A stretch of 64,000 bases of DNA, taken from the NCBI GenBank assembly GCA_036732165.1, contig DAINCX010000001.1, forward strand, positions 81,053-145,052, in the 5' to 3' direction. Position numbers and translations under genes: made by a program. Origin of the DNA: Candidatus Dormiibacterota bacterium. Its GTDB lineage: Bacteria > Chloroflexota > Dormibacteria > CF-121. Positions 4,940 through 43,261 of this stretch are shown piece after piece; position 1 is the first letter of the stretch, and each line of letters opens with the position of its first letter. The notes under the pieces are model-generated. The model was given only the letters and a program-made list of their open reading frames with translations, was not told where the DNA came from and did not search any database.

Positions 4940-5812
4940 GTGCCGATCGAAATCTCCGCGCCGGTGCGCCAGGCGCTGGCAAGCCAAACCGGCGTCGTCG
5001 CCCTGGAATCGGCCGTGATCACGCACGGCCTTCCCGTGGAGGCGGCGCTCGAGGCGGTCCGACGCCAGTGGGATGCCTGCGTGACCGAAGGGACGGTGCC
5101 CGCTGTGATCGCCGTCTATCAGGGGAGGCTGCGGGTGGGCGTGTCCCTCGACGAGTGCGCGGTTCTCGCCAATCGCCCCGACGCGGTCAAGGTGTCACCG
5201 TGGAACCTGGCGTCCAGCCTGATCGCGCCCGGGTTCGGCGGGACCACGGTGGCGGCGACCATTGTCGCCGCCGCGATGGCGCGCATTCGCATCCTGAGCA
5301 CGGGCGGGATCGGCGGCGTGCACCCCGGCGACGGCCGGGACGTCTCCAGCGACCTCACCGAGCTGGGTCGCAAACCAGTCTGCGTGGTCTGCGCCGGTCC
5401 GAAGTCGACCCTGGATCGCGCCGCCACGCTCGAGCGGCTGGAGACCCTGGGCGTGCCGGTGATCGGCTGGCGGTCCGATCGCCTTGCCGGCTTTCTCGCG
5501 GAGTCCACGGATTTTCCGCTGCCCGCTCGCGTCGATTCGCACGCGCCGCTGGTGTCGGTGCTACGCGCCCACTGGGAACTCGGCGGCCAGGGCGTGGTGG
5601 TCAGTCAGCCGCTGACGGGCGCGGCCGCCATTCCGGCCGAGCTTGTCGATGTCGACGACGGCGGTGACGAGCGCGGACCGGACCGGACCCCGGCGGAGCT
5701 GGGTCGGTTGCGCCAGCGGCTGGGGTCGCGGATGGTCCGGGCCAACGTGGCGCTCCTGGAGCAGAACGCGAGGCTGGCGGCGCAGCTGGCCGCCCGCCTG
5801 GCGACGGCATGA
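4940..5812 (+). CDS. psuG: Pseudouridine-5'-phosphate glycosidase
   Basis: PsuG/IndA family motifs are present (ALESAVITHGLP, STGGIGGVH). The track ORF start at 4889 would overlap the tRNA-Leu, so the GTG at 4940 (VPIEIS...) is the proposed start. Confidence 0.78.
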   Translation: MPIEISAPVRQALASQTGVVALESAVITHGLPVEAALEAVRRQWDACVTEGTVPAVIAVYQGRLRVGVSLDECAVLANRPDAVKVSPWNLASSLIAPGFGGTTVAATIVAAAMARIRILSTGGIGGVHPGDGRDVSSDLTELGRKPVCVVCAGPKSTLDRAATLERLETLGVPVIGWRSDRLAGFLAESTDFPLPARVDSHAPLVSVLRAHWELGGQGVVVSQPLTGAAAIPAELVDVDDGGDERGPDRTPAELGRLRQRLGSRMVRANVALLEQNARLAAQLAARLATA

Positions 5813-29700: not shown

Positions 29701-29720
29701 TTCCCTTGACTCCCAGCAAG

Positions 29721-29750
29721 TCGGGGCTTCGAGTCTCCCCGTCGGCTCCA
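29721..29750 (+). other. tRNA 3'-end-like fragment (T-arm plus acceptor 3' strand, ending CCA)
   Basis: The sequence GGGGCTTCGAGTCTCCCCGTCGGCTCCA contains a TTCGAGT T-loop. No matching 5' half was found, so it cannot be folded into a full tRNA. Confidence 0.3.
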
Positions 29751-29845
29751 AATTTCAATACAGAGCCGGCTTCGACGCTCCTTTGTTAATAGCTCCCTAA
29801 GCCACGTGACATAGAGCCTTCGAGTATGGCGGGCGCGCGCATAAT

Positions 29846-30649
29846 TTGGGTTCCACCGTGTCTTCCACCAGTGAGACCGCGACGCACCGTCTGGCTCTTC
29901 AAGTCGAAGATCTCCACGTCAGCTATGGTCCGAAGAGGGCAGTTGACGGCGTGTCCCTCGACATCAACGAAGGGGAGATCTTTGGCCTGCTGGGCCCGAA
30001 CGGAGCAGGGAAGACGAGCACGCTCAGCGCAATTGAGGGTCTGCTGCGGCCCGACTCTGGCTCGATCCGAATCGGCGATGTCGACGCTCGAGCTAACCCG
30101 ACCATCGCGAAAGCGCGGATGGGCGTCCAGCTGCAGTCGACGAGCTTCCAATCCGATCTCACCATCCGCGAGATCGTCAGACTCTACGGGGGACTCTACG
30201 GCGTACCGCTCACCCGAGCCGGAATCGACGAACGGCTTGCCGACGTCCACCTGGGGGAGGAAGCACCAAAGCGCTTCAGCCAGCTGTCCGGGGGACAGCA
30301 GAAACGTGTCTCATTGTTGATTGCTACGATCCACAGCCCGCCACTGGTACTCCTCGATGAACCCACGGCCGGCTTGGACCCGCAGGCTCGCCGGCAGCTG
30401 TGGGATCGGATCGAACGGCTCCGCGACATCGGCCGGAGCATCCTCCTGACGACGCATTCCATGGAAGAGGCGCAGGCTGTCTGTCACCGCGTGGCGATCA
30501 TCGACACAGGCAAGCTGCTCACGGTCGATACGCCGGCTGGGCTCATCGAAAAGCACAAGGATGACCCACGCGTGCGCAAGGTGGCCCATGGCCAGGTCAC
30601 GCTCGAGGACGTCTTCATCGGGTTAACGGGAAGTGAGCTTCGCGATTGA
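29846..30649 (+). CDS. ABC transporter ATP-binding protein
   Basis: Walker A GPNGAGKTS, the signature LSGGQQKR and Walker B LVLLDEPTAGLD are present. The start is probably the GTG at 29858. Confidence 0.85.
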   Translation: MGSTVSSTSETATHRLALQVEDLHVSYGPKRAVDGVSLDINEGEIFGLLGPNGAGKTSTLSAIEGLLRPDSGSIRIGDVDARANPTIAKARMGVQLQSTSFQSDLTIREIVRLYGGLYGVPLTRAGIDERLADVHLGEEAPKRFSQLSGGQQKRVSLLIATIHSPPLVLLDEPTAGLDPQARRQLWDRIERLRDIGRSILLTTHSMEEAQAVCHRVAIIDTGKLLTVDTPAGLIEKHKDDPRVRKVAHGQVTLEDVFIGLTGSELRD

Positions 30650-31430
30650 GATGAGCAGCCAGCCGAGCGCCCCACCCATCCACCCTCCGACGCTATCAGA
30701 GATCCTCAGAGCCCTGCTTCAGGCGGACCTCACCGTTCAGTTACGGAACGGGCGAGCCTTGGTGCTGACGTTCCTTCCGCCGCTCGCCGTCCTCTACGGC
30801 CTGTCCGCTGGCAAACGCGGCGCTCAACTCGGCGGCCCGATCGTCAACGTGGCGCTGGCTCTCACGCTCGGCATCGCGTTGATTGCCATCCTTGGCTACA
30901 CTGCGTCCGTCGCCAGGGATCGCGAGCTGGGTGTTTTCCAGCGCCTCCGGGTCACGCCGGCTCCGACCTGGACCATCATGGTCAGCCGGCTGGCCGTTCA
31001 GATCGTTTCAATGCTGGCAATGAGCGTGGTGGTCCTCGTGGCGGCCGCCGTCGTCGAGAACGTCTCTCTGGATCCGGCAGCGTACCTCCTGACCCTCCTC
31101 GCCGTGATTTTCAGTTCGGCTGTCTTCCTCGGCGTGGGACAGGCCCTGGTCGGGCTCATCAAATCGGCGGACACGGTCAACGCCGTCGGACGGCTGAGCT
31201 TTCTGCCGCTCTTCGCTCTCGGCCTGTTTGCTCATTCCGCAATCTTCGGCACCACCTTTGAGACCATCGCGCGCTGGTCACCCGGGGGGGCAGTGGCGAC
31301 GTTGCTCGCGGGCGCGATGCGGCCGGCTGCGTGGAGCGGGGACACCTGGTGGGCCCTTCTCGCGAGCGTGCTGTATGCCATCGTGTTCGCTGGGGTTGGC
31401 ATCCGCTGGTTTCGGTGGAGCACACGCTAA
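30633..31430 (+). CDS. ABC-2 type transporter permease
   Basis: 265 aa with six hydrophobic segments. It overlaps the ATPase gene, so the two are coupled. Confidence 0.7.
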   Translation: MSFAIEMSSQPSAPPIHPPTLSEILRALLQADLTVQLRNGRALVLTFLPPLAVLYGLSAGKRGAQLGGPIVNVALALTLGIALIAILGYTASVARDRELGVFQRLRVTPAPTWTIMVSRLAVQIVSMLAMSVVVLVAAAVVENVSLDPAAYLLTLLAVIFSSAVFLGVGQALVGLIKSADTVNAVGRLSFLPLFALGLFAHSAIFGTTFETIARWSPGGAVATLLAGAMRPAAWSGDTWWALLASVLYAIVFAGVGIRWFRWSTR

Positions 31431-32326
31431 GTTCGAGTTCGGGCGACGGCGCGCCGCAGCACGACCTGGAACTCGCGGTCGAACCCGGCGGGTACCTCCC
31501 CCGGCAGCGCGTCTCGCTGCCGCACCCACGCGAAGGCGTGCGCGAACGTGCCGACGCGGATCGCGAGAGTGAATGCGCTGGCGAGACCCTGGCCCCACGG
31601 CTCGAGATACGCGTCGCGCAGCCGCGCAAACCACGGGTCGGCCGGTGGCAGCTTGTTGATCTCCTCGAGGAACCGGAAGGTCACGACAAGCGACGCGAAA
31701 GGGTGCGCGATCGACGCGTCGCCCCAGTCAAGCAGGCGCAGCTGCTCGCCCTGTACGTAGAGGTTCGCCCCGTGGAGGTCGTCGTGCTGAACCGTCTCCG
31801 GGACATTGTGTGCGGCGAGCTCCTCGCAAAACTCCGCGAAGCGAGCCGCAAACCGCCGCAACCGATCGATCTCGTCGCTCTCGAGCGGCAGATCGTGCCG
31901 CAGCAGGTCCTCGTAGCGAGCCGGCAGCTTGGCGACCCGCAGGTCGGGGACGTGGTGTGCCAGGTGTTCTGGTGTGTATGCGGCCTCGCCGCGCTGGAGC
32001 TCGGCGTACAGCGGCAACGTGGCGAGCCAGGTCTCCGGCGGGTTGAGGTAATAGCCAATCGGCGCGCCGGCGTCGGCGAGAAGAAGCCACGCCCGCTCCT
32101 CATCGTGGCCAAGCACCTCGACGACGCGGTCGGGCCACCGCGCGAAGAGCCCGGCCGTGAGCCGGGGCTCGAAGGCCTGCACCGGACTACACGCCTTGAA
32201 CCAGGCAACGCCGGTTGCGAGCGGCACGCGCAGCACCGTCGCCCACGGTCGCTCGCGCGCCGTCTCGAGGGCGCCGACCGGTTGGACGTACGTGCGAATC
32301 CAGGCTTCAGCGGCAGCACGGTCCAC
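31427..32326 (-). CDS. Aminoglycoside/macrolide phosphotransferase-family kinase (APH-like)
   Basis: The Brenner motif HDDLHGANLYV and LLDWGDASIAHPF are present. The GTG start at 32326 (VDRAAAEAW) was chosen because the track's longer ORF would overlap the upstream PPOX-family gene. Confidence 0.68.
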   Translation of the reverse strand: MDRAAAEAWIRTYVQPVGALETARERPWATVLRVPLATGVAWFKACSPVQAFEPRLTAGLFARWPDRVVEVLGHDEERAWLLLADAGAPIGYYLNPPETWLATLPLYAELQRGEAAYTPEHLAHHVPDLRVAKLPARYEDLLRHDLPLESDEIDRLRRFAARFAEFCEELAAHNVPETVQHDDLHGANLYVQGEQLRLLDWGDASIAHPFASLVVTFRFLEEINKLPPADPWFARLRDAYLEPWGQGLASAFTLAIRVGTFAHAFAWVRQRDALPGEVPAGFDREFQVVLRRAVARTRT

Positions 32327-32364
32327 GCTCCTACTATGCCGCGATGCCGCTACCCCTATGGCGG

Positions 32365-32847
32365 TCAAGTTCGTTGCGCAACAATCTGCTCCACGGCGAT
32401 CGGGAGTCGCGTCTCGAAGTCGAGGAGTTTCGCCCAATCGGGCGTGATCGTGATGCGCGCCATCTGCTTGTACAGGTCGCGCACTTGAACTTCGAACGCC
32501 TGCCATTGCTCCACCGGAATGTATTTCTTAGATGCCTCGAAATACTCAGCTGGTATTCCGTCGACTATTTCGACGGAGGCTGTGCCTCGCACCAACAACA
32601 CATGGGGTGGCTGCGTGTCGGTATCCACGGTCAGCGCGACCTTCGGGTTGGTCTGCAGCGCTCGCACTTTGGGTGCATTCGAGGCGGTGCAAACAATGAA
32701 CTGACCGCCCCTCCACTGGTACCCGATGGGGATTACTCGTGGGTATCCATCCCTTCCGTTGTATGCGAGATGGGCGAGAAGGGGCGAATGGAGCAGTTCT
32801 TGTGCGAGCGGGTCGTCCAGGATATCGACGATGTCTTCTCGTCTCAC
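32365..32847 (-). CDS. Pyridoxamine 5'-phosphate oxidase-family, PPOX class F420-dependent enzyme-like
   Basis: 160 aa with a split-barrel FMN/F420-binding fold pattern. GC is about 58%, versus about 70% in the flanks, and the gene uses AGA, ATA and AAA codons that are rare elsewhere in the window. Confidence 0.72.
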   Translation of the reverse strand: MRREDIVDILDDPLAQELLHSPLLAHLAYNGRDGYPRVIPIGYQWRGGQFIVCTASNAPKVRALQTNPKVALTVDTDTQPPHVLLVRGTASVEIVDGIPAEYFEASKKYIPVEQWQAFEVQVRDLYKQMARITITPDWAKLLDFETRLPIAVEQIVAQRT

Positions 32848-32931
32848 GGCAGACCTCCTTCATGCTGAACCAAGTCGACCGCAATCAGTGCTTGTTTCTG
32901 CCTTCTAGCCAGATGCCCGGGTCTTGAACTC

Positions 32932-32980
32932 AATAAGAAATTACAGCCTGAATGGGTGGTGTCCCCAACCGTACAAGTTA
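32932..32980 (+). repeat. Imperfect direct repeat copy B (about 50 bp) sharing its core with the tRNA-Arg(CCG) 3' end
   Basis: The sequence is aataagaaattacagcctgaatgggtggtgtccccaaccgtacaagtta. It is about 81% identical over 49 bp to copy A at 41539-41588. The core GGTGGTGTCCCC matches the tRNA-Arg(CCG) 3' acceptor/CCA region. Confidence 0.6.
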
Positions 32981-33113
32981 GGCCGTCTTCCAACGCCGGG
33001 AGATATGATGCCTGTGCTCCCTAAACGATCCGTCCGGCGCGAAGCGCCTTTGCATCGAGTCTCGCTCGACCATCTCAGTCGAGCGACCGAAGTCGGTACT
33101 GGAGGTCGCCACC

Positions 33114-33467
33114 ATGTCGCAATTGCCGTCTACCGCTCCCCTGATCGTAGCCACGACCGAGCGCCCGGCCGGCTATGAGGTCAAGCAGACTCTGGGCCAA
33201 GTGTTCGGCGTCGTGGTGCGCAGCCGCGGCCTGGGTGGCAACATCATGGCGGGTCTTCGTTCACTCGGCGGTGGCGAGATCGTGGAGTACACGCGCCTTG
33301 TCGAGGACACCCGGCGCCACGCGATCGACCGCATGGTCGAGAACGCTCGGGCTATGGGCGCCAACGCGGTCGTGATGATGCGGTTCGATTCATCAGAGAT
33401 GGGCAAGACAATGACGGAGGTGGTCGCCTACGGCACCGCTGCCATCATCGACAAGAGTGCCACGTGA
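33114..33467 (+). CDS. YbjQ/UPF0145-family protein (putative heavy-metal-binding)
   Basis: 117 aa, and YbjQ-like along the full length. Confidence 0.8.
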   Translation: MSQLPSTAPLIVATTERPAGYEVKQTLGQVFGVVVRSRGLGGNIMAGLRSLGGGEIVEYTRLVEDTRRHAIDRMVENARAMGANAVVMMRFDSSEMGKTMTEVVAYGTAAIIDKSAT

Positions 33468-33673
33468 TCCCCTGGGTGCAGCTCGTCTTCCTTGTTGTCG
33501 TGATTGTCTTCGCGATCACCGGCTACTTCATCTGGGACCGCCGGTACCGCGGCGCGAGAGGAGAAAACTTCACGCCCACAAACGAGGTCTTCAAGGATCC
33601 GACGACGGGCAAGCTGACCCGCGTTTACGAGGATCCTGCGACGGGCAAGCGGCAATACAAAGACGAGCCTTAA
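33464..33673 (+). CDS. Small membrane-anchored protein (69 aa)
   Basis: An N-terminal TM helix is followed by a charged tail with repeated DPxTGK. It overlaps the ybjQ-like stop, so the two are coupled. GC is lower than the flanks. Confidence 0.4.
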   Translation: MIPWVQLVFLVVVIVFAITGYFIWDRRYRGARGENFTPTNEVFKDPTTGKLTRVYEDPATGKRQYKDEP

Positions 33674-33765
33674 TGCGCTTCCGTACCGCTGACCAAGCTT
33701 GGACGCCTAACTAGGCGGCAGCGGCCATGGTGCCGATTCGGGCGGGACTCAGTCTCCTTCGGTGG

Positions 33766-34251
33766 CTAGCTTGCCGCTGGTCGGACGACCAGGGCCATCT
33801 GGGCGTCCAGCCGCTCCGCGATCCGGTCGACGAAATCCTTGATGGTCGCCTCCGCTACCCGCGACAGGAGGGCCCGGTCCACCATTCGGCCGATCAGGCC
33901 GAGCGGCGGACGGTACCGGGCGCTGAAGGCGAGTTGGGTGCGCTCGGCACCTAAGGTGGCGAGCTCGAGGTCACCATCGAGTACGGGGAAGAGCCCGCTG
34001 GGACCGGTCGCCTGCCACGAAATCGGAATCCAGGTCCGCGCGGACGACCGAACCGGGTCTCCCAGCCCGATCGAGATCCTTTTGACGATCCGGTGGCCAT
34101 CCATCGGAAATCCCACCTCGGTCAGCAGCCACTGGCCGCGCACGTCGGCGTTCTCAGCGAGATTCGGTAACCACGATGACGGTGCCTGGAGCAATGAGCG
34201 CTCCAGGTTCGGCATCGGGTGCGCCAGCTCGACGTAGTATCGGATGAACAC
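33766..34251 (-). CDS. SRPBCC-superfamily protein (polyketide cyclase/dehydrase-like)
   Basis: 161 aa with a START/Bet v1-like pattern. Confidence 0.55.
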   Translation of the reverse strand: MFIRYYVELAHPMPNLERSLLQAPSSWLPNLAENADVRGQWLLTEVGFPMDGHRIVKRISIGLGDPVRSSARTWIPISWQATGPSGLFPVLDGDLELATLGAERTQLAFSARYRPPLGLIGRMVDRALLSRVAEATIKDFVDRIAERLDAQMALVVRPAAS

Positions 34252-34255
34252 GGTA

Positions 34256-35206
34256 TCACCGCCCTCCCTCTTCCCGGTAGTACCGGCGCCACACGAGCCG
34301 GTAGATCGGGACCAGCCGCGGGATGTCGCGCAGCCCGGGAATGAACGGCACCACCAGCAGACCGAGCGTCAGCACGCCCATCAGGATCACCACCAGCAAG
34401 TCGCCGTTGGGCGCCGTGTTGAATGGTGGGATCTGGTACCAAACCGTGTACAGCCACAACCAGGACTGCCCCGGGTACTGACCCGTCTCATTCATCATGC
34501 CCCACTGGCTGCCGCTCAGGTGTTGTTGGTCGGCCAGGCCGGCCAGGTACGAACCGTCGGCCATGAAGAGGAGCGGCTTGGTGAAATCGGTCTGATAGAA
34601 ATGTCCACTGCTGAGCAAGAGACCATCGAGGCCACCCGAGCGCGCAACGGCCAGGAGTCGGTCCATCAACACGGGGACTGCGCCGTAGTCGCCACTCGCG
34701 ACCACGACCTTTCCGTCTTGGACTTTCGCGTCGCCGAGCGCCGTCGTGTAGGCAGTCAGCCAGGTGGTCTTCTGGGCGTCGGAGGCCGCCTGGAAATCAC
34801 CCAGTGCGGTGGTCAACTGCGAATCCCCGACACTGGCGTGCTTCAGCGGGCTGATCACGAAATCGTTCGCGCTGTCGACCGGTTGCCGGACGCCCGCCCA
34901 CTTCGATGGCGCGATCGGGCCCAGCGTCTGTCCCGCATCGGTGGCGTTGTACGGCGCGCCATAGCCGGCACTTGTCGTCGAGCCGGCCAACTCGCCGGCC
35001 GCCGTGGTGGTGAAGTCAACCGGGTCAGCCTGTGCCCAGCTCTGGATGGTGACCGACGGCACGTCCGGCGATGACAGGACCGCCGCCAGCACGATTACCA
35101 GCACGAGGCAGGCCGCCATGGCAATCGCGACTTCCTTGAGCAGGTCATAGGGCACCGTCCGGATGCTCGACGCGGAGCCCTCTGACGTCGCGCCCTTCTT
35201 GAACAT
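34256..35206 (-). CDS. Cytochrome bc subunit-IV-like membrane protein with a roughly 220-aa extracytoplasmic insertion
   Basis: It has an N-terminal TM helix, a large Ser/Thr/Gly-rich domain, and a C-terminal WYQIPPF...LLVVILMGVLTLGLLVVPFIPG. The C-terminus parallels PWYFLGLQELLSRFPP...FPTFVIVLMILVPFLD of the canonical subunit IV at 58236-58826. It lies immediately downstream of the cytochrome b gene. Confidence 0.5.
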   Translation of the reverse strand: MFKKGATSEGSASSIRTVPYDLLKEVAIAMAACLVLVIVLAAVLSSPDVPSVTIQSWAQADPVDFTTTAAGELAGSTTSAGYGAPYNATDAGQTLGPIAPSKWAGVRQPVDSANDFVISPLKHASVGDSQLTTALGDFQAASDAQKTTWLTAYTTALGDAKVQDGKVVVASGDYGAVPVLMDRLLAVARSGGLDGLLLSSGHFYQTDFTKPLLFMADGSYLAGLADQQHLSGSQWGMMNETGQYPGQSWLWLYTVWYQIPPFNTAPNGDLLVVILMGVLTLGLLVVPFIPGLRDIPRLVPIYRLVWRRYYREEGGR

Positions 35207-35209
35207 TTG

Positions 35210-35872
35210 TCACACCTCCGAAGTCGAGTGCGTCGCTGGCTGGGAAGACTCGATCGGCCGGACGACGCCCTTCATGCGAACCCAGACGATGTGCAGGGCA
35301 ACCAGCACGATGATGGCGGCGGGCAGGAGCAACACGTGGATGCCGTACATTTGGCCGAAGTTGAGGACGTTGAAGAAGGCGCCCAAACCGGCAGCATTGA
35401 GCGCGTCCTTGGCGCTAACCGCGATCCATTGCGAGGCGAAGTTCTGTTGCGAGAGGTAGCCGGTGAAGGCCGCCCCGATTGAAATCGCAAAGATGATCAC
35501 CCCGATCATCCAGGTCGCTGCCCGACCGCCTCGCCAGCTGGCCATGAAGTACTGACCCCAGAGGTGCAGCACCATGAAGACGAAGAAGAGCTGGACACTC
35601 CAGAAGTGCAGGCTGTTGAAGAATCGGCCGGCCGCCGAGATGTGCCACCAATCGGGCCCGGCGATCGCCAGGATGACGCCGCTCAATACCGTCAGCACCA
35701 ACGCGGCGATGGTCACGACGCCGAAGACGTAGACCCACGAGCCCACGTAGTACGGCTGGCGGTCAGGCAGAAGGTTTTCCATCGGCAGCCTTTCTGCGAT
35801 TTCCTCGCGGGCGCGGGCCGTCCAGCTGCTGGAGCGTTCGCCCATCGGTCCGGAGGCGTTGGTTGGTCTCAT
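35210..35872 (-). CDS. Cytochrome b (b6-type N-terminal two-haem domain), orphan paralogue
   Basis: Helix-B His pair: LHFWSVQLFFVFMVLHLW. Helix-D His pair: GIHVLLLPAAIIVLVALHIVW. Four TM helices, and no PEWY C-terminal domain. Confidence 0.8.
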   Translation of the reverse strand: MRPTNASGPMGERSSSWTARAREEIAERLPMENLLPDRQPYYVGSWVYVFGVVTIAALVLTVLSGVILAIAGPDWWHISAAGRFFNSLHFWSVQLFFVFMVLHLWGQYFMASWRGGRAATWMIGVIIFAISIGAAFTGYLSQQNFASQWIAVSAKDALNAAGLGAFFNVLNFGQMYGIHVLLLPAAIIVLVALHIVWVRMKGVVRPIESSQPATHSTSEV

Positions 35873-36006
35873 GACTTCTCCTTCTCACCCGGGAGGGGGA
35901 CGAACAGGGCGATCACGAACAGCACGATCATCAGGCCGATCAGCAGTAGGTTCGGGATCGAGATGAGGATGAAGCCCCAGTGCAGGTAGCCGGCAGGTGT
36001 ATCCAT
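35869..36006 (-). CDS. Small single-TM protein (about 45 aa)
   Basis: MDTPAGYLHWGFILISIPNLLLIGLMIVLFVIALFVPLPGEKEKS, coupled to the cytochrome b start. The track extends it to 36126. Confidence 0.35.
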   Translation of the reverse strand: MDTPAGYLHWGFILISIPNLLLIGLMIVLFVIALFVPLPGEKEKS

Positions 36007-36104
36007 AGTGGTTTCTACGGTACGCACCGCTGCCGGAGGAGGACACCGACCAAGGTCCCTCCTTCGGGGGGACCTTTCAGCCGCACCTCCGAATTTGCGA
36101 CGAT

Positions 36105-36770
36105 ATGTCGGTGAGCGAGACACCACTACGGGTTGTGCTGGTTGACGACCACGAAGTTGTCCGGGATGGGATCAAGTCGTTGCTCGAACCCGAAGCCGAC
36201 ATCACGGTCGTTGGCGAAGCCGGGACCGTCAAGGAAGGAATCGCCCGGGTGGAGTGGGCTCGTCCGGACGTGGTCATCATGGACATCCGGCTCCCGGATG
36301 GGAGCGGTATCGAGGCGACCCGTGAGATTCGCGCTCGTCTGCCGAAGACGCAGGTCCTGATGCTGACGACGTTCGCCGACGACGATGCGCTATTCGCCTC
36401 AATCATGGCGGGCGCCGCCGGTTACGTCCTCAAGCAGATCAAGGGCGCAGACCTCGTGCGGGCAGTAAGGACTGTCGGATCCGGACAGAGTCTCCTCGAC
36501 CCTGCGGTCACCAAGGGCGTCCTGGACCGGCTTCGGAAGGGCAAGCACTTCCTCAAGGACGAGCGGCTCGCCCGGCTGTCGGCCCAGGAGGAGCGGATCC
36601 TGACCCTCATCTCCGAAGGCAAAACGAACGGAGAGATTGGACAGGAACTCCACCTGGCCGAAAAGACGGTCAAGAACTACGTGACGAGCATCCTCTCGAA
36701 GCTCGAGGTGGCCCGCCGGGCCGAGGCCGCCGCCTACTTCGCCCGCCGCACGACGACCCCCGGCTCGTGA
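36105..36770 (+). CDS. NarL/LuxR-family response regulator (DevR/DosR-like)
   Basis: A REC domain (VVLVDDHEVVRDG...DIRLPDGSG) is followed by a LuxR HTH (LSAQEERILTLISEGKTNGEIGQELHLAEKTVKNYVTSILSKL). Confidence 0.9.
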   Translation: MSVSETPLRVVLVDDHEVVRDGIKSLLEPEADITVVGEAGTVKEGIARVEWARPDVVIMDIRLPDGSGIEATREIRARLPKTQVLMLTTFADDDALFASIMAGAAGYVLKQIKGADLVRAVRTVGSGQSLLDPAVTKGVLDRLRKGKHFLKDERLARLSAQEERILTLISEGKTNGEIGQELHLAEKTVKNYVTSILSKLEVARRAEAAAYFARRTTTPGS

Positions 36771-36786
36771 CCCGCTTCGTTCAGGG

Positions 36787-37572
36787 TCAGGGAAGGACGA
36801 AGACGACGCCCTCCATGGCAGCGGGAAACTCCGAGCTCCCCGGTCTGGCCTGCACCCGCTTGACCTCGCTGTTCCAGGTCGCGTGCGCATCGCAGAAGTA
36901 GGGATAGATGCCGGGCTTGTCGAAGGTGTAGGACGCATTGCCGTTGGCCGGGACGACGAACTTGAACTGGACGCTAACGCCCGGATCCGTCAGGACCGTG
37001 TGGGCGTCGGCGTCAAGGTTGGTCCACGTGACCTGGGTGCCCTGCTTGACGGCGATGGCCAGCGGCTCGAACCGGTCGGCACTGGGCATCACGATCTTGG
37101 CTTTGCCGGCGGACAGGGGCCCGTTGTCTCCCGCGACCAGGATGATCCCGTACATCGATATGGGATAGGCGCTCGCCCCCCGCTTGGCCTTGATCAAACC
37201 GGTTGTCCGATCGTAATCGGAGTGCGCATCGCAGTAGTAGCCGTAGATCCCGGGCTGGCTGAACGTGTGGGTGACCGACTTGCCGGACCCCACAAGCAGC
37301 TTGAAGTCGACCTGGTCTGTCGGCATCGAAACGACCGTGTGGGCATCCGTATCATGGTTGGTGAACGTCACGGTCCCTCCTGCCGCGATCTCGACCAGGA
37401 ATGGCTCAAAGCGATCGGCCTGTGGGATCGTGACGGCGGCCGTGCTCGGCAGGCCCGCCGCGCTCCCGCTGGGATTTGACGCACCGGACCCCCCGCCGCA
37501 CGAGGCAAGGATGACGGTGGTGCCAAACATGGCCAGGGCCGCAAGGCGATGGGGTATCAACAGAATTTTCAT
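36787..37572 (-). CDS. Lipoprotein with two tandem cupredoxin-like domains (atypical Cu site)
   Basis: The lipobox is ILASCGGG. Two repeats each carry H...YYCDAHS / YFCDAHAT, but no Met lies at the usual C-x2-H-x4-M position. Confidence 0.65.
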   Translation of the reverse strand: MKILLIPHRLAALAMFGTTVILASCGGGSGASNPSGSAAGLPSTAAVTIPQADRFEPFLVEIAAGGTVTFTNHDTDAHTVVSMPTDQVDFKLLVGSGKSVTHTFSQPGIYGYYCDAHSDYDRTTGLIKAKRGASAYPISMYGIILVAGDNGPLSAGKAKIVMPSADRFEPLAIAVKQGTQVTWTNLDADAHTVLTDPGVSVQFKFVVPANGNASYTFDKPGIYPYFCDAHATWNSEVKRVQARPGSSEFPAAMEGVVFVLP

Positions 37573-37691
37573 GCGAGCGCTCCTCAGTCAGTATTGGGAG
37601 AAGTATCCGGTGATCGCTCCATTTCCCCAAGGGGCCATGGGTCCTGACCTGCGTAGGCCAAAGGTCCCGCCGCGCCCTACGCGGCCCGCCC

Positions 37692-39305
37692 CTACGGCCG
37701 CTCGGCGGTCTTGATCGGCAACACGGCGTCGTAGGAGGTTTTGGAGGTTTCCACGACTACCGTCACCATCCAGTTCCCTGCCAGCGACAGCCTTGTGCCC
37801 TCCGCGCTGTAGATCCCAGCCCCCAGGCCTCGCAGCTCGAGGACGGTTTCGCCGGTCTCCGGGCGGCTTTGGAGATCGAACAGCAGGAAGAGGCGGGCTC
37901 CGCTGAGCGGCCGGCCCGTTTTGTAGTCGCGGACCGTCACCGTGAACCGGTTCAGGCCGGCGTATCCCGGGGCGACGTCAAGGTTCACCCGGACGGCGGT
38001 GCCGTGATCGACGCCTGCCACGACGAGGTGCGGAAAATTCTGCGACGCTGCCGCTCGAACGAAGCTCGGTGGCGGCAGGGTGGTAAGAAACGCCGCGGCG
38101 ACCATGATCACCGCAGCCAGCACGAGCTCTCCTCGAGATACCCAGCGCAGCCGGGGAATGCCGGCAACAGCCATTCGCACGTAGCGCCAGCGGTTCGTCG
38201 CCGCCAGCGGCGCGATCGTGATGAACAGCGCCGTCTTGGCCAGTAGCAACCAGCCGAAGGTCGTCGTAAACAGGTTCGACCAGTTCCCGACCTCGTCGAT
38301 CCCGCGAACCAGTCCGGTCAGGATCATGGCGGCAAAGGCGAACCCGGCAACCACGGAGAAACGGCCCACGGCGCGCGCCTTGTCGATCGTCGGCAGACCG
38401 CGGATCCCGACGAGCACGGCCACCAGCCCGCCGATCCACACCGCGTAGCTCAACAGGTGCAACCAGTGGGTGGGGATCATGAGCCAGGCCAGAGGACTGG
38501 AGGCGGCGTGGCTCACGGTCGCATTGGCCAGCATGGCGATGGCGCTGAGGGCGGCACAAATTCCGAGCGCGACCCGCCGAGGGGTTCCCTGCAGTCTCCA
38601 GGCGGCGAGCACCGCCACGCCCGCCGCGACGAGAGGTACGACCACGAGTTCCATCCCATGCGCCAGCGACGTGCCAAGGAAAAAGGACCAGTCGACGCCG
38701 GCGTTCTCACGCGTCGACTCGACGACCATGAACGCCCCGATTAGGGCCAGCACGTCGCCAACACCGACCACGAGCAAGACCGCGAGAGAGAAATCCTGGA
38801 GGGCCAGCAGATCGACCCAGGCGCCGCCCAGGAGAAGCCCATAGCCGGCATCCAGACCCCATCGACCTGTGACCCCGAGCGGTGACGGCGGGGCGGCGGG
38901 TGGGGCGACGGCCAGGGGAATGGGTGGCACTGCCTGGGCGCCGACCGCGAAGGCGAACACGCCGGTGGCGACATGACCGTCAATCGCAGAGACGGTGCGC
39001 CAGCTGACCGTGTAGACCCCATCGCCAAGGGGAGGGAGCGTGATGGCGACGGTCGTCGAAGCGCCCGACACGGCTGACGCGGGCCCGCCGGCCACCTGGC
39101 GACCGGAGGTGTCGAGGATCTGGACCTGCGAGAGCTTCGGATCTGGCGCTTCGGTGAACGTGATGATGACCACGCTCGGCGCGTGCGCCAGCCTGGCTCC
39201 GTCGGGTGGGTCCGACAGGCGCACCAGGGAATGGGCCTCGGCAACGACGCTCAGCGCTAGCATGACGCCACCCGCCAGGAGTACCGCCGTTAGGAACCGC
39301 CGCAC
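37692..39305 (-). CDS. CopC/CopD-family copper resistance fusion protein (YcnJ-like) with C-terminal YtkA/FixH-like domain
   Basis: It has an N-terminal signal peptide and a CopC domain (HSLVRLSDPPDGARL...), then about 8 TM helices (CopD), then a C-terminal beta-rich domain. Confidence 0.8.
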   Translation of the reverse strand: MRRFLTAVLLAGGVMLALSVVAEAHSLVRLSDPPDGARLAHAPSVVIITFTEAPDPKLSQVQILDTSGRQVAGGPASAVSGASTTVAITLPPLGDGVYTVSWRTVSAIDGHVATGVFAFAVGAQAVPPIPLAVAPPAAPPSPLGVTGRWGLDAGYGLLLGGAWVDLLALQDFSLAVLLVVGVGDVLALIGAFMVVESTRENAGVDWSFFLGTSLAHGMELVVVPLVAAGVAVLAAWRLQGTPRRVALGICAALSAIAMLANATVSHAASSPLAWLMIPTHWLHLLSYAVWIGGLVAVLVGIRGLPTIDKARAVGRFSVVAGFAFAAMILTGLVRGIDEVGNWSNLFTTTFGWLLLAKTALFITIAPLAATNRWRYVRMAVAGIPRLRWVSRGELVLAAVIMVAAAFLTTLPPPSFVRAAASQNFPHLVVAGVDHGTAVRVNLDVAPGYAGLNRFTVTVRDYKTGRPLSGARLFLLFDLQSRPETGETVLELRGLGAGIYSAEGTRLSLAGNWMVTVVVETSKTSYDAVLPIKTAERP

Positions 39306-39582
39306 GCTGGCCGAAGCCTAGCAGGTGTAGAGACGACGCTCGTTCCCAGTTACGAGGACCTCCGCCGACGGACATCGCGCACTCAAGGACTTCATTCTCC
39401 GCCTGGGCGCAATGGTCGAAGCGGATCCCAAGATTGCCGAGCTCGACTGCAATCCGTGTTCGTGGTCAGAGAGCCGCGGCGGCCTTTGGGGGCCCGTACA
39501 TGAGGCGGACTGGAACGTTCGCCTCCTAAAATAGCCTCGGGGCCGCCCAAGAGCTAGTGACCACGGCCGGCGCCCGGAAGGG

Positions 39583-41229
39583 GTGAGTGTGATGGCCTCG
39601 ATGTCGACCTCGGGCAAGGACCGGCGTGATCAGCTCCTGGAGTCCGGGCTCGCTCTCGCCTCGGGTCTGTCGCTGCCCACCGTTCTCCAACGAATCATTG
39701 ATCTTGCTGTGGAGTTGAGTGGGGCCCGCTATGGCGCCCTTGGCGTGCTCGGTCCCGGCGGCCGGATCCGCCAGTTCATCACCGTCGGCATCAATGCCGA
39801 GGAGCGGCGCGCCATCGGTCCGCTGCCCTTGGGCCAGGGCATCCTGGGCGCGCTGATTCGTGACGCGAAGCCGCTGCGGCTGCGCCGTATCACTGACGAT
39901 CCGCGCTCGATCGGCTTCCCCGCGAATCATCCACCGATGTCGTCCTTCCTCGGCGCCCCCGTCGTGGCGCGAGGCAAGGTCTTCGGCAACATCTACCTGA
40001 CCGAGAAGCAGGGTGCGGCCGAGTTCGACGCCGAGGACGAGGCCGCCCTGGTGGTCCTCGCGACCCAGGCCGGCGTGGCCATCGAGAATATCGACCTCTA
40101 TGAGGAAGGGCGGCGGCGCGAGCGCTGGTTGGAAGCGGTCCGAGAGATTGGAACCGCCATCCTCGCTGGCCAGGAGCTCAAAGCCGTCCTCAAGGCCGTG
40201 GCCCACGACGCCCGCGAACTGGCGCGGGCAGCGACGGCGACTATCGTGGTGCCCAGCCTCGAGGAGGACAGTGAATCAGACTTGATGATTGCCATCGCCG
40301 ACGGCGCCTATGCCGATGAGTTGGACGGGCTACGGGTGCCGATGCAGGGGTCGGTGTCGGGCGACGTTATGCGCACCCGACAAACCGCTGTACTGGCCAA
40401 CGGGTCGACCGACCCCCGGACATACCAACCGATGGTCAGCCTCGGCCGCATGGGCCCGATGGTGCTGGTGCCCCTCCTCGTGCAGGGGCGCTCAATCGGC
40501 ACCCTGGCTGTCGCGAACCCAGTCGGTGGCGCAGCGTTCGAGGAGCAGGAGGTTCGACTCGTCGAGACGTTCGCGAACCAGGCCTCCGTGGCGCTCGAGT
40601 ATGCCCGAGCCCAGCGGGATCGGCAGCGCGTGGCAGTGATGGACGACCGCGAACGGATCGCGCGCGAGTTGCACGACGGCGTCATTCAATCGCTCTTCGC
40701 CGTCGGGATGGGGCTGCAGGCGGCGGCCCAACGCAGCGGCGACCGCGAGATCGAGAGCCGGATCGATTTGGCCGTCAGCGAGATCGACCGCGCCATCCGG
40801 GACCTGCGCAACTACATCTTTGGATTGCGACCCGGTCTCCTGGCGGATCGCCAGCTACGCCAAGCCCTCGATGACCTCATTGCGGACTTCGCGGAGAAGA
40901 GCGGGGTCACGATCGTCGCGGACGTCGACGAGGGACTTGCTGCCGAACTGGCGCCCCGCTCAGCAGACCTGGTGCAGCTAACCCGCGAGGCGCTCTCGAA
41001 CGTGGGCCGGCATGCCCAGGCCGCAACCTGCCGGGTCAGTCTCTTTCGCGAGGATGGCCAGGGCGTGCTGCAGATCGAGGACGACGGCCACGGCTTCGAT
41101 ACCGCAGCGCCGCACACCGGTCAGGGGACGCGCAACCTTCGAGAGCGCGTCAGCGCGATGGGGGGTCAGGTGGCGATCGAGAGCGTGATCGGTGAGGGGA
41201 CCACCATCAAAATCGCGATGCCCCTCTAA
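39583..41229 (+). CDS. Sensor histidine kinase with tandem GAF domains, HisKA_3 + HATPase_c (DevS/DosS-like)
   Basis: Two GAF domains are present (ARYGALGVL...GNIYLTEK...AIENIDLYEE, and a second copy), then the HisKA_3 H-box RERIARELHDGVIQSLFAV and the ATPase G-boxes. It is the likely partner of the RR at 36105. Confidence 0.85.
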   Translation: MSVMASMSTSGKDRRDQLLESGLALASGLSLPTVLQRIIDLAVELSGARYGALGVLGPGGRIRQFITVGINAEERRAIGPLPLGQGILGALIRDAKPLRLRRITDDPRSIGFPANHPPMSSFLGAPVVARGKVFGNIYLTEKQGAAEFDAEDEAALVVLATQAGVAIENIDLYEEGRRRERWLEAVREIGTAILAGQELKAVLKAVAHDARELARAATATIVVPSLEEDSESDLMIAIADGAYADELDGLRVPMQGSVSGDVMRTRQTAVLANGSTDPRTYQPMVSLGRMGPMVLVPLLVQGRSIGTLAVANPVGGAAFEEQEVRLVETFANQASVALEYARAQRDRQRVAVMDDRERIARELHDGVIQSLFAVGMGLQAAAQRSGDREIESRIDLAVSEIDRAIRDLRNYIFGLRPGLLADRQLRQALDDLIADFAEKSGVTIVADVDEGLAAELAPRSADLVQLTREALSNVGRHAQAATCRVSLFREDGQGVLQIEDDGHGFDTAAPHTGQGTRNLRERVSAMGGQVAIESVIGEGTTIKIAMPL

Positions 41230-41538
41230 GTGGAAAGGTCCCGAGCACTCTAGGATCTTCCGCCCTCACCGCCTCCCGCTGCCGATGACAGGATGGCGTA
41301 TGGCTCCTTCAGTTCTGGGCCTTCTACCTGGTTCTCGGGACGACGATCGCAGCCGTTGGGCTCGCGTGGTCGCGAACCAGTGCCGCTCGAAACGGCTTCG
41401 AGACCTCGAGGTGATTGTGATGCCGGCCATGGCCATTGCAACACCGCCAGCAGCGCCGCAGGCAGTATCGCCAGCTTCGCCAACCACACCGCTGACTCCA
41501 CCGGGCGCCAGATTCGTGGCCGTGGGTAATCTCAACGA

Positions 41539-41588
41539 ATTAAGAAGTAACACCCGGAATGAGTGGTGTCCCGAACCGTTCAAGTTAT
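41539..41588 (+). repeat. Imperfect direct repeat copy A (about 50 bp) sharing its core with the tRNA-Arg(CCG) 3' end
   Basis: The sequence is aattaagaagtaacacccggaatgagtggtgtcccgaaccgttcaagtta. The core GAGTGGTGTCCC is identical to tRNA-Arg(CCG) nt 43182-43193. The repeat is intergenic. Confidence 0.6.
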
Positions 41589-41730
41589 GAACTCGACCTG
41601 CCATCCGCGATGAGCGCTTAGTATTCGGCGGTCGAGCTCCAGCGGATGCTAGACGGACGGTTAGCGGACGGTTAGCGGACGCTCAGCCGACTCCCGCCTA
41701 ATGCGTCCTGTGGGTGGGCAAGCTCAGTCC

Positions 41731-42210
41731 TCAGCTCACCGCTTTCTTCACGAGCGCGCCGATCCTTGCCTCTTCGGCGGCGGTCAACTCCTTCAACGCG
41801 AAGGCGGCCGGCCACATGGCGCCTTCGTCGAGGTTCGCCTTGTCACTGAAGCCAAACGTCGCGTACCTCGTGTTGAACTTCTGCGCGCTTTGGAAGAAGC
41901 AGACGATCTTGCCGTCCTTGGCATACGCGGGCATCCCGTACCAGGTTCTCGGCGAGAGAGCTGGCGCGCTAGCTTTGATGATGGCATGGAGCCGCTGGGC
42001 AATGGCGCGATCCGGTTTCGGCATCTCGGCGATCTTCGCGAGCACGTCGCTTTCCCCGTCCGCCTTGTCCGCGGCCGCCTTCAGCTCTTGGACGCGCGCC
42101 TTCATCGCGGCTCGTTCCTCGTCCGTGAATCCCTTGCGCGTCTTGCCGATCGCAGTGGTGCTCTTGGCGGACTTCTGCGTAGCCTTCGTTCCAAGTCTCC
42201 TCTCAGCCAT
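41731..42210 (-). CDS. DUF1801 (YdhG-like) domain protein with Lys-rich N-terminal extension
   Basis: The C-terminal region [23 protein letters not shown] is typical of DUF1801. Confidence 0.55.
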
Positions 42211-42297
42211 GATGTTTCCTGACCTCCTGCGTGCGGCGCTGAGCCGTGACCCCGACGTTACGGATCGGAGCCCCGCCTCTTACTTTAGTGGGTCGCC

Positions 42298-42545
42298 GTG
42301 CCGCAGGAGGCCGAGGTCGACATCCTCGCCTTTCACGGTTTCCCGCTTGAGCACCGCCGGCAGATCTGGTCGACCAACGCCCTCGAGCGTCTCAACCGGG
42401 AAGTCGGTCCTCGTTGCGAGGTGGTCGGCATCTTTCCCCAACCGGCCCGCGGTCTTCCGCCATGTGGGCGCCGGCCTCGAGGAGCAGAACGACGAATGGG
42501 CCGTCGGCCGCCGCTATTTCCAGACAGGAGTTGATGCACAGGCTG
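42298..42545 (+). mobile_element. Remnant of an IS256-family (mutator-type) transposase: C-terminal roughly 110 aa only, with an internal frameshift
   Basis: One frame gives DILAFHGFPLEHRRQIWSTNALERLNREVGPRCEVVGIFPQ. The next frame continues SFPNRPAVFRHVGAGLEEQNDEWAVGRRYF. Together these match the IS256 transposase C-terminus. The N-terminal about 290 aa are absent. Confidence 0.75.
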
Positions 42546-43184
42546 CTGGAACCACATGTCCAGAACGGGCCGCAGCGTTAGATCCGTCGCTCTCGCATGC
42601 GAGCTTGCTTCGTCACGGCGTGCAAGCCACGGCGCCAGCCTAGAACCGCTAGACATCCCGACAGAGTGCAATGCTGGAAAGCACCTTTCGGCACGTTACA
42701 GGTACGTGACTCCCCGTGGCCCACTGGGTTATTTGGACCGACTCGGCCAGCTTCATGGATGGAGGAGCGTCGTTGAACGGGCCCTGATCCTGTTGATTGT
42801 TGCCGGAGTCGTAATTGGACTTCTCATTCTCTCAAGCGGAAATCACGCAAACGTGTTTTGCAACATCTCCGGCTCCCCGGGGCAATAAGGGGCCGCTCCG
42901 ACGTTGAAGCCGTCCGCTGACCGGCCCCATCTTCGGTGACTACGATGAGTCCGCAAATGGGCGGCGAAGACGATCCACAGAACTGGCGACTTGACGTGCG
43001 TGAAGACCATATCGAGCTTTATAACGAGCTAGCAGAGCGACCCAGACCGCCCACTGCCTCAGCGTCCGCTGACCATCTCCTAACCTTCCGTCGACGGGAA
43101 CTCTCGGCTGCGCGGGTGGGCTCTTAATAACCCTTTTCAGCAGCTTTTCGAATTCGCCCAGCCCGGTTCAAAACTTGTTTTGAG

Positions 43185-43261
43185 TGGTGTCCCCGACAGG
43201 ATTTGAACCTGTGCTCCTGGCTCCGGAGGCCAGTGCTCTATCCAGGCTGAGCTACGGGGAC
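43185..43261 (-). tRNA. tRNA-Arg (anticodon CCG), CCA encoded
   Basis: Hand-folded. The acceptor is GTCCCCG/CGGGGAC plus A plus CCA, the D-arm is GCTCAGCCTGGATAGAGC, the anticodon loop is CTCCGGA, and the T-loop is TTCAAAT. Confidence 0.88.

Follow-up and report, generated by a model that had tools for sequence, protein, structure and literature searches.

A tRNA-Arg(CCG) gene in Dormibacterota as the probable docking site of a directional array of integrase-less cassettes

We analysed a 64-kb stretch of DNA (64,000 nucleotides, referred to below as the window) from contig DAINCX010000001.1 of a Candidatus Dormiibacterota bacterium, in which a tRNA-Arg(CCG) gene is accompanied on its 3' side by two intergenic sequences that share a short core with the end of the tRNA. 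The region from 29.76 to 43.26 kb is probably a directional array of integrase-less cassettes that were inserted serially and site-specifically into the 3' end of this gene. Serial site-specific insertion of integrase-less cassettes at tRNA-Arg(CCG), taken by itself, is the part of this reading that we hold with high confidence; the proposal that a tyrosine recombinase acting in trans was the agent is evenly balanced. The argument draws on the anatomy and orientation of the array, its anchoring at the tRNA, the swapping of flanks around the core, the narrow interval of exchange, the diversity and shuffling of the cargo, and the absence of recombinase genes from the arrays.

The tRNA-Arg(CCG) gene, for which ARAGORN and Rfam (tRNA, 67.5 bits) gave concordant calls, occupies positions 43185-43261 on the minus strand, with its 3' end at 43185 as a preliminary description of the region had placed it, and forms the proximal end of the array and its fixed, attB-like docking site. 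The core at this end, GTGGTGTCCCC (43184-43194, plus strand), is the reverse complement of the 3' strand of the acceptor stem, the discriminator and CCA, plus one nucleotide. The sequence GTGGTGTCCC was found at exactly three sites in the window (32956, 41563 and 43184), all on the plus strand, with 0.2 matches expected from shuffled sequences and none of 100 shuffles reaching three; the two intergenic copies, copy A near the tRNA and the more distant copy B, are co-oriented with the tRNA, as first described. A 31-nucleotide consensus of the two copies, GAATGNGTGGTGTCCCNAACCGTNCAAGTTA, matched only at 32950-32980 and 41557-41587, where no match was expected by chance. A shared tRNA-derived core was borne out over 10 nucleotides, the stretch of the tRNA that is identical in both copies and exact at all three sites; the 15-mer originally given for it is inexact in copies A and B. 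The core of copy A is one C shorter (GAGTGGTGTCCCGA), and that of copy B reads GGGTGGTGTCCCCAA (GGG...CCCCAA).

To the right of the core lies a conserved arm of ~125 bp, here designated U_E, which comprises the core, the arm and phased 11-bp repeats of the GCGGACG type; the sequence directly left of the core, designated the D-arm, falls into recurrent types (F1, F2, F3 and others). Copy A contains a full-length U_E (41563-41694, plus strand; nhmmer E = 8e-36, profile positions 2-126) with the core GTGGTGTCCCG, the conserved arm and five phased 11-bp repeats at 41642-41692 (GCGGATG, ACGGACG, GCGGACG, GCGGACG and GCCGACT). A repeat scan gave four overlapping matches at copy A, and its window-wide count was reached by none of 100 shuffles. 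Copy B (32942-32993, plus strand; nhmmer E = 9e-10, profile positions 2-57) is a truncated U_E in which the core GTGGTGTCCCC (32956-32966) is followed by AACCGTACAAGTTA, after which similarity ends; it thus amounts to the core and only ~25-35 nucleotides. The core of copy B is preceded by an F2-like D-arm (~32925-32955) and that of copy A by an F2-type D-arm (..ttaagaagtaACACCCGGAATGA; 41520-41562, plus strand), which is the proximal end of the cassette that we number 2. The D-arm adjoining the tRNA is of type F1 (43088-43183, plus strand); as the tRNA-proximal end of cassette 1 it now forms the 3' trailer of the tRNA, and in four other loci (L002, L006, L007 and L009) the sequences ahead of element copies are 87-94% identical to it. 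Similarity between copies A and B had been noted beyond the tRNA-derived core, and it is accounted for on the left by the F2-type D-arm and on the right by U_E. The length of about 50 bp that was assigned to the repeats falls well short for copy A, whose conserved unit runs from ~41549 to 41694. Nor are the repeats mere duplicates of the tRNA 3' end, given that only 7-11 nucleotides are identical to the tRNA and the rest consists of the ~125-bp element arm and a recurrent opposite arm.

For a wider view of the element, species-representative genomes were scanned with GTGGTGTCCCNAACCGTNCAAG and soil metagenomes with a 21-mer, and a profile of the unit was then applied. The genome scan returned 11 stretches from 11 metagenome-assembled genomes, one locus per genome, of which seven are labelled Dormibacterota, three Chloroflexi/Chloroflexota and one "Nitrosopolaris"; the metagenome scan returned at least 120 soil stretches with the unit. 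The array set consists of the 132 loci listed, window included, and covers 754 kb. The profile gave 235 matches in these loci, with one to five copies per locus, and copies on mixed strands were seen in none of them. Copies of U_E are directly repeated and 80-95% identical over ~125 bp. The consensus of 87 distinct full-length copies, GTGGTGTCCCCAACCGTACAAGTTATGAACTCCACCTGCCAGCCGAGATGAGCGCTTGGTATTCGGCGGTCGAGCTCCAGCGGACGCTCAGCGGACGGTCGGCGGACGCTCGGCGGACGCC, ends with four GCGGACG motifs at 11-bp spacing, compared with five in copy A of the window. Read in the tRNA sense, U_E is collinear with the whole of tRNA-Arg at low identity (shuffle p ~0.01-0.03), a resemblance that faintly suggests that the unit may descend from a captured tRNA-Arg copy.

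The tRNA-Arg(CCG) gene is present in 35 of the loci, including the window. In all 35 it points the same way relative to the copies and stands beyond the last of them, so that the array is always on the 3' side of the tRNA, while gene order on the other flank of the tRNA is conserved across species. D-arms of the same types were found to join either the tRNA or the element. The F1 D-arm, which ends with ...ttcgaattcgcccagcccggttcaaaacttgttttGA at the core, adjoins U_E 36 times and the tRNA 11 times; F2, ending with ...tttatacaaataaactaataagttatgACACCCGGAATGG, adjoins U_E 43 times and the tRNA 10 times; and F3, which is F1 with a 55-nucleotide extension ending in gagcgtttgagagg, adjoins U_E 27 times and the tRNA four times. 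The flanks are thereby swapped between loci: the window has F1-core-tRNA and F2-core-U_E, L012 has F1-core-U_E and F2-core-tRNA, and L004 has F2 at both. The anchoring at all 35 tRNA genes and the two partners of each D-arm type bear out the earlier suggestion of serial integration at the tRNA 3' end.

The hexamer that precedes GTCCCC followed the type of D-arm, whichever the partner (AGTGGT for F1, GGTGGT for F2 and GTTGGT for F3), and this rule was also kept in rare variants without an encoded CCA. The bases after CCCC were set by the partner, with AACCG for U_E and GACAGG for the tRNA. With the hexamer going with the D-arm and the right side with the partner, the interval of exchange is narrowed to (T)GTCCCC, a stretch of 6-7 bp in the acceptor stem, and such a position indicates conservative site-specific recombination. 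A segment of 6-7 bp is the size of the overlap region of tyrosine recombinases, and (T)GTCCCC has the layout of an attachment (att) site for these enzymes, a short identity of 6-8 bp with partner-specific flanks. In some D-arms (L108, L129, L115 and L077) part of a core, GGGTGGTGTCCCCAACCGTACA, was nested ahead of a second core, and the 55-nucleotide extension of F3 contained a GGGGCCTCGCCCC hairpin (L010:5872-5950, L133 and L040). These nested-core and F3 D-arms look like recombination scars or stacked arms.

Complete units, delimited from core to core or from core to tRNA, numbered 138 in the loci listed. Their lengths ranged from 501 to 9927 bp, the median being 1385 bp, and 119 were shorter than 3 kb; the cassettes fell into 94 sequence families. 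In families with several members the neighbours varied from locus to locus, with family 4 having four different right-hand neighbours. The cargo was very diverse: the 147 representative proteins matched 196 Pfam families, each of them present in no more than three. Examples include MarR, GNAT, methyltransferases, MFS, the Vgb-lyase family, cupins and TetR, as well as PadR, ABC transporters, glyoxalase, Gp49/HigB-like proteins, parts of toxin-antitoxin systems, copper handling, efflux and APH-like enzymes. The units are bounded by functional-looking att sites and lack integration and transfer genes, which is the arrangement by which cis-mobilizable elements (CIMEs) and accretion are recognised. 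Species other than that of the window had other cargo at the tRNA site. The locus labelled as the archaeon Candidatus Nitrosopolaris (L007, DASPYG010000054.1) is a 7.5-kb contig with three co-oriented element copies and cargo typical of the cassettes (MarR, SRPBCC, cupin and PIG-L), and it is probably a misbinned Dormibacterota contig.

The largest unit, L058:600-10400, has 9.9 kb between an element copy and the tRNA, with a GC content of ~0.58-0.60, few convincing open reading frames (ORFs) and a 150-amino acid ORF duplicated at both ends. This interval was considered as an autonomous element and rejected, since it contains no recombinase-like ORF. Large ORFs of ~460 or 690-900 amino acids were seen beside some arrays (L108:1247-3946, L011:5142-7999 and L069:3350-6669). 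By eye they show P-loop kinase, metallophosphatase and ligase-like motifs, which are reminiscent of the Pnkp/Hen1 RNA-repair pair.

The preferred model of serial insertion can be set out as follows. On the plus strand, a cassette would consist of U_E (~125 bp, starting at the core), the cargo and a short D-arm. As a free circle it would present an attP-like site of ~180-240 bp in which the D-arm leads through (T)GTCCCC into U_E, and this (T)GTCCCC would be exchanged with the identical segment in the acceptor stem of the tRNA gene. Insertion would rebuild the last nucleotides of the tRNA, with the D-arm as the new 3' trailer, and would push older cassettes outward, so that each of these would end distally in a U_E-core junction. 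Repeated insertion would build the array, and erosion would truncate or delete the older sites. In the window, the cassette with the DUF1801 gene and the IS256 remnant would be the youngest, the 8.6-kb copper/redox cassette the next, and the PNPOx, APH-like and ABC cassettes older. The enzyme would be a tyrosine recombinase that acts in trans from an unlinked gene, and the phased GCGGACG repeats would be accessory binding sites; an exchange interval of 6-7 bp together with a long arm bearing phased repeats would fit such a trans-supplied enzyme with accessory sites.

Cassette 1 (41563-43183; 1.6 kb, GC content 0.612) contains the U_E arm, a DUF1801 gene (41731-42210, minus strand), a remnant of an IS256-family transposase (42298-42534, plus strand; PF00872, Transposase_mut, E = 2e-11) and the F1 D-arm. 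The truncated transposase reported previously for the inner segment is thereby confirmed. The DUF1801 module has a 90% identical counterpart in L084. Cassette 2 (32956-41562; 8.6 kb, GC content 0.651) contains, on the basis of Pfam matches and gene calls, YbjQ (33114-33467, plus strand), two unknown genes (33766-34251 and 34256-35206, both minus strand; gene calls), cytochrome b (35210-35872, minus strand), a LuxR-type response regulator (36105-36770, plus strand), a double cupredoxin (36787-37572, minus strand), CopC-CopD (37692-39305, minus strand) and a GAF histidine kinase (39583-41229, plus strand). This unit (33.0-41.5 kb) had no match in the 131 other array loci listed.

The accessory region had been taken to start at copy B; the variable region reaches further left, to ~29762, and the ABC, APH-like and PNPOx modules in this part are also cassettes. 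The conserved left backbone, consisting of a DUF6582 gene and its neighbours, stops near 29.4 kb. Adjoining copy B is a PNPOx-family module (32351-32955; gene at 32365-32847, minus strand; GC content 0.562), beside which ctatggcggtcaagtt at ~32340-32362 is a possible eroded relic of an element copy, as judged by comparison of the junction with L022, L066 and L131. It is followed outward by a cassette with precise ends for an APH-like phosphotransferase (31434-32350, minus strand; Pfam APH and locus comparison). The same interval with the same ends and 83-91% identity was found in seven loci (L066, L036, L091, L022, L122, L032 and L131), with partial matches in three further loci cut by contig ends; the module is flanked by element copies in other loci and fused to its neighbours without copies in the window. 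The outermost recognisable cassette is an ABC-transporter module (29762-31431, plus strand) with an ATPase (29846-30649) and an ABC-2 permease (30633-31430). A 79-88% identical block was found in L011, L084, L057 and L035, and in L011 a truncated element copy stands at either side of it (3287-3318 and 5010-5043). From these comparisons, the ABC, APH-like and PNPOx modules appear to be older cassettes whose sites have been truncated, eroded or deleted. On the other side, the tRNA is adjoined by genes for an XRE-TPR regulator, a BldD-like regulator, XseB, XseA and an HD protein (Pfam and gene calls), and it is this set that is syntenic across species.

The atypical composition noted at the outset was confirmed. 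Over 29761-43184 the GC content was 0.643, compared with a background of 0.666, and the tetranucleotide distance exceeded that of all background windows of the same size. The most deviant parts were the PNPOx module (0.562; 32351-32955) and cassette 1 (0.612; 41563-43184), with the copper/redox unit deviating mildly (0.651). A tRNA-like 3' fragment (..ttgactcccagcaagtcGGGGCTTCGAGTCTCCCCGTCGGCTCCA) with a T-arm-like part and an acceptor-like end, which is not called by ARAGORN, was observed at 29712-29752 on the plus strand. It forms the exact left border of the variable region, the equivalent spot in L011 being a truncated element copy, and it was absent from all other loci compared; the fragment may have been left behind by another kind of element that targets tRNA genes. 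In other samples, contigs of the same species were seen to end at the edges of the array, at ~29857 in L013 and at window positions 43143 and 43186 in L155 and L156, the latter two within 1-40 nucleotides of the tRNA 3' end or the core. These contig ends may reflect population heterogeneity at att sites or only the behaviour of the assembly.

The search for a recombinase covered six-frame ORFs of all the loci listed. XerD, lambda Int and gamma-delta resolvase served as phmmer queries; catalytic-motif patterns, a hidden Markov model derived from 120 integrase fragments and a Pfam scan of the 147 cluster representatives were applied as well. In the window and the 754 kb of listed arrays, a single tyrosine or serine recombinase was detected: L076:2-331, a C-terminal fragment of a Phage_integrase protein, which lies at the end of a contig and 4.6 kb away from the closest element copy. 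Its homologues are all short fragments of 64-188 amino acids that adjoin tRNA-SeC, tRNA-Ser, tRNA-Cys or tRNA-Asp, or form frameshifted pairs, and have no U_E nearby; the relic was therefore rejected as the cognate enzyme. These homologues (P0001-P0120) constitute a tyrosine integrase family of soil metagenomes that is recorded almost only as ORFs of 64-188 amino acids. In L138:212-1335 and L139:2550-3688 the integrase gene is split into two overlapping ORFs beside a tRNA or a tRNA fragment, and such split ORFs could be recurrent frameshifts or pseudogenes. In L135:8669-10502 and L136:4072-7482 an 89-amino acid C-terminal fragment lies between a large ORF (426 and 952 amino acids, respectively) and tRNA-SeC; the large ORFs have no or weak Pfam matches, and the integrase fragment stands at the edge of an island with an N6_N4 methyltransferase and a ResIII helicase. 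An integrase split by its own att site, as in Sulfolobus spindle-shaped viruses (SSV), was considered and dropped, given that U_E has stops or low complexity in all frames as judged by eye and that the integrase fragments do not abut U_E.

Mobile-element collections gave a similar result. U_E had no real match in IMG/VR, the one hit (L140) being a chance match in a contig of 29% GC, and it was not found among GenBank phages and PLSDB plasmids, so that an origin of the att site in a phage, plasmid or virus was rejected. No autonomous relative that combines the same att sites with an integrase was detected in the array loci, IMG/VR or the phage and plasmid records searched, and no replication genes were found in the listed arrays.

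Several observations weigh against the model, at least in a simple version. No recombinase other than the L076 fragment was detected in the arrays, no free attP circle was found, and no empty attB site was seen; for these reasons we infer both the enzyme and the circular intermediate. At least six other assemblies of the same species, with 99.3-100% nucleotide identity, had the same array, and there is no sign of ongoing turnover at that scale. It had been suggested that the same region in the same place in related genomes, with no empty-site allele, would tell against an island; this was the case within the species, and in other species the cargo differed. Gene orientation inside the cassettes was mixed. 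About 45% of the element copies among the 235 profile matches listed were truncated, and the recurrent APH cassette has only ~60-85 nucleotides of U_E, which would mean that the GCGGACG repeats are not essential for every move or that cassettes travel passively with their neighbours. The CopCD-cupredoxin block of cassette 2 (36771-39345) recurs at 86% identity in a different context in L144 and L145 (L144:6657-12533 and L145:1627-4199, from a Dormibacterota/Chloroflexi-labelled genome), where it is inverted and lies 1.7 kb from an ABC module (85% identical to window 29828-31442) with no element copy and no tRNA-Arg nearby. The 8.6-kb cassette 2 is large and, on this comparison, mosaic. The loci were also gathered by matching the element itself, and arrays elsewhere in the genomes, or far from the tRNA on short contigs, are possible.

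Among other explanations, the one closest to the preliminary description supposes a few classical tRNA-integrating islands or prophages that lost their own integrases by decay, with the repeats as attR scars. Direct repeats of the tRNA 3' end, their co-orientation and the atypical composition fit this account, as do the IS256 remnant, the truncated copy B and the integrase relic in the array-bearing contig L076. The window indeed contains no integrase, as was stated originally. However, such absence is the rule across the 132 loci listed, and independent loss from essentially every unit is implausible. Most units are 0.5-3 kb long and have precise, conserved ends at either side, a given cassette can be found beside different neighbours, and the ~125-bp conserved module far exceeds the 7-11 nucleotides in common with the tRNA; the L076 integrase homologues, moreover, sit at tRNA-SeC, tRNA-Ser, tRNA-Cys and tRNA-Asp without U_E. 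We therefore consider decayed islands unlikely. A dedicated recombinase might also be dispensed with altogether if U_E were portable homology for RecA-dependent shuffling, through Campbell-type circles or transformation with flanking homology. The directly repeated U_E copies, with their 80-95% identity over ~125 bp, would suffice for homologous loop-out and insertion, and the arrays contain no recombinase gene. This possibility is nevertheless a poor one: the tRNA and U_E share only 7-11 nucleotides, yet 35 tRNA junctions have the same D-arm types as the element junctions, and homologous exchange could not join D-arms to the tRNA. It would also scatter breakpoints through U_E, whereas the switch point of F1, F2 and F3 lies within (T)GTCCCC.

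The element might instead function as an RNA or in regulation, for instance as a terminator, a promoter or a small RNA resembling a tRNA, and have been duplicated together with the genes beside it. Its collinearity with tRNA-Arg at low identity (the shuffle p of ~0.01-0.03 given above) could be read in this way, as could the F2 junction, where a GACACC-N10-GGTGTC hairpin is followed by a U-rich tract. No Rfam family was matched at gathering or relaxed thresholds, however, and ARAGORN found no tRNA in the unit; none of the 27 pairs predicted by RNAalifold was compensatory, the covariation term was unfavourable, and the folding z-scores were ordinary (-0.5 to -1.2). On the Rfam, ARAGORN and RNAalifold results U_E was rejected as a structured RNA or tRNA-like gene, and a regulatory role would leave the swapping of tRNA flanks unexplained, which makes an account of this kind very improbable. 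A generic dispersed intergenic repeat, of the repetitive extragenic palindromic (REP) or miniature inverted-repeat transposable element (MITE) type, with a chance resemblance to the tRNA end would likewise be short, intergenic and multicopy. It is scarcely credible here, and the possibility of a REP-like element raised earlier has not been borne out, given the single locus per genome in 11 genomes, the presence of only two copies in the 64-kb window, the strict co-orientation (0 of 132 loci mixed) and the tRNA-anchored array; no terminal inverted repeats or target duplications were seen.

With serial insertion of integrase-less cassettes as the preferred reading, one fixed chromosomal site gathers diverse accessory genes in small units that have standard ends and no recombinase of their own. 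Dormibacterota are abundant uncultured bacteria of soil and permafrost. To our knowledge, their means of gene exchange are essentially undescribed, and our literature search found no description of such arrays, or of tRNA-anchored elements, in Dormibacterota. Integrase-less "islets" at tRNA genes are commonly written off as decayed islands. Should the units be moved in trans, they would constitute a cassette economy comparable to that of integrons on att sites of the tRNA type, with a bearing on how the flexible genomes of soil bacteria are assembled and on the reading of integrase-less islets beside tRNA genes in other phyla. We put forward more tentatively, as a conjecture with somewhat less than an even chance, that Dormibacterota possess an integron-like platform for gene capture, in which circles of a single gene each, bearing a two-armed att site of ~200 bp, would dock at the 3' end of tRNA-Arg(CCG) and be inserted and shuffled by a recombinase encoded at an unlinked site. 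Such a platform would stand beside integrons as a second system of cassette arrays with an evolutionary origin of its own, and it would draw on a large soil-wide pool of cassettes, as the 94 families among 138 cassettes of a small sample would indicate. The U_E profile provides a practical marker for recovering such pools from metagenomes.

Among known systems, the genomic islands at ssrA in Dehalococcoides consist of tandem units downstream of a small RNA gene, with a direct repeat of its 3' end and a conserved motif; 16 of the islands have a six-gene integration module that includes the serine recombinase DsiB, and 15 lack it (PMC3146451). The authors of that study suggested that the islands without the module may be CIMEs moved by accretion (PMC3146451). 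The arrays described here resemble these islands and CIMEs in their tandem units, the 3'-end repeat with an adjacent conserved motif and the presence of integrase-less members, the cargo being strain-specific in Dehalococcoides (PMC3146451). They differ in that no unit has an integration module, among at least 213 copies, that the units are about ten times smaller (median 1.4 kb), that the target is tRNA-Arg(CCG) rather than ssrA, and that the conserved part is an arm of ~125 bp with phased repeats, as opposed to a motif of 15 bp (PMC3146451). With tycheposons, by which islands of Prochlorococcus grow at specific tRNA genes as successive integrations push older elements inward (bioRxiv 10.1101/2020.12.28.424599), they have in common tRNA-anchored growth by successive integration and the displacement of older elements. 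Those islands contain scattered partial tRNA repeats, degenerate remnants and plug-in cassette cargo (bioRxiv 10.1101/2020.12.28.424599). Tycheposons have their own tyrosine or large serine recombinase and usually a replication module, neither of which was found in our arrays, and our repeats, unlike those of the Prochlorococcus islands, are not partial tRNAs beyond 7-11 nucleotides.

Prophages, ICEs (integrative and conjugative elements) and actinomycete ICEs that target tRNA genes through tyrosine integrases and a lambda-type attP with arm sites are similar in that the tRNA 3' end is targeted and rebuilt through a short segment of identity, and the attP proposed here would likewise have repeated motifs in one arm, at a length of ~200 bp. 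Those elements carry int, often with xis, beside the att site and extend over many kilobases, whereas in the present arrays the arms bracket single accessory genes and there is no int. Integrons, chromosomal arrays and attC clusters without an integrase included, share with the arrays the one-directional arrangement, cassettes of mostly one or two genes (short in both, with a median of 1385 bp here), diverse cargo, a fixed docking site and a recombination site of ~60-140 bp per cassette. Unlike integrons, the arrays have no IntI beside the docking site, where the neighbours of the tRNA are XRE-TPR, BldD-like and XseBA proteins with no Phage_integrase match; the genes of the cassettes lack a common orientation; the role of docking site falls to a tRNA gene; and the recombination site is split, like an attP, into two arms around a core of 6-7 bp. 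A single-stranded hairpin of the attC kind was considered and rejected, with DNA folding z-scores of -0.5 to -1.2 on both strands and no compensatory pairs. Given that there is no adjacent intI, no attC folding and no co-orientation of genes, the array falls outside the definition of an integron. The closest systems are tandem accretion arrays with integrase-less members, such as the Dehalococcoides ssrA islands and the islands built by tycheposons. The present arrays differ from these in that no unit has an integrase, that the units are of single-gene size and that the conserved site is long and two-armed. The array is a variant of tRNA-anchored accretion that, without the defining features of integrons, is integron-like in its array logic and in the diversity of its cargo.

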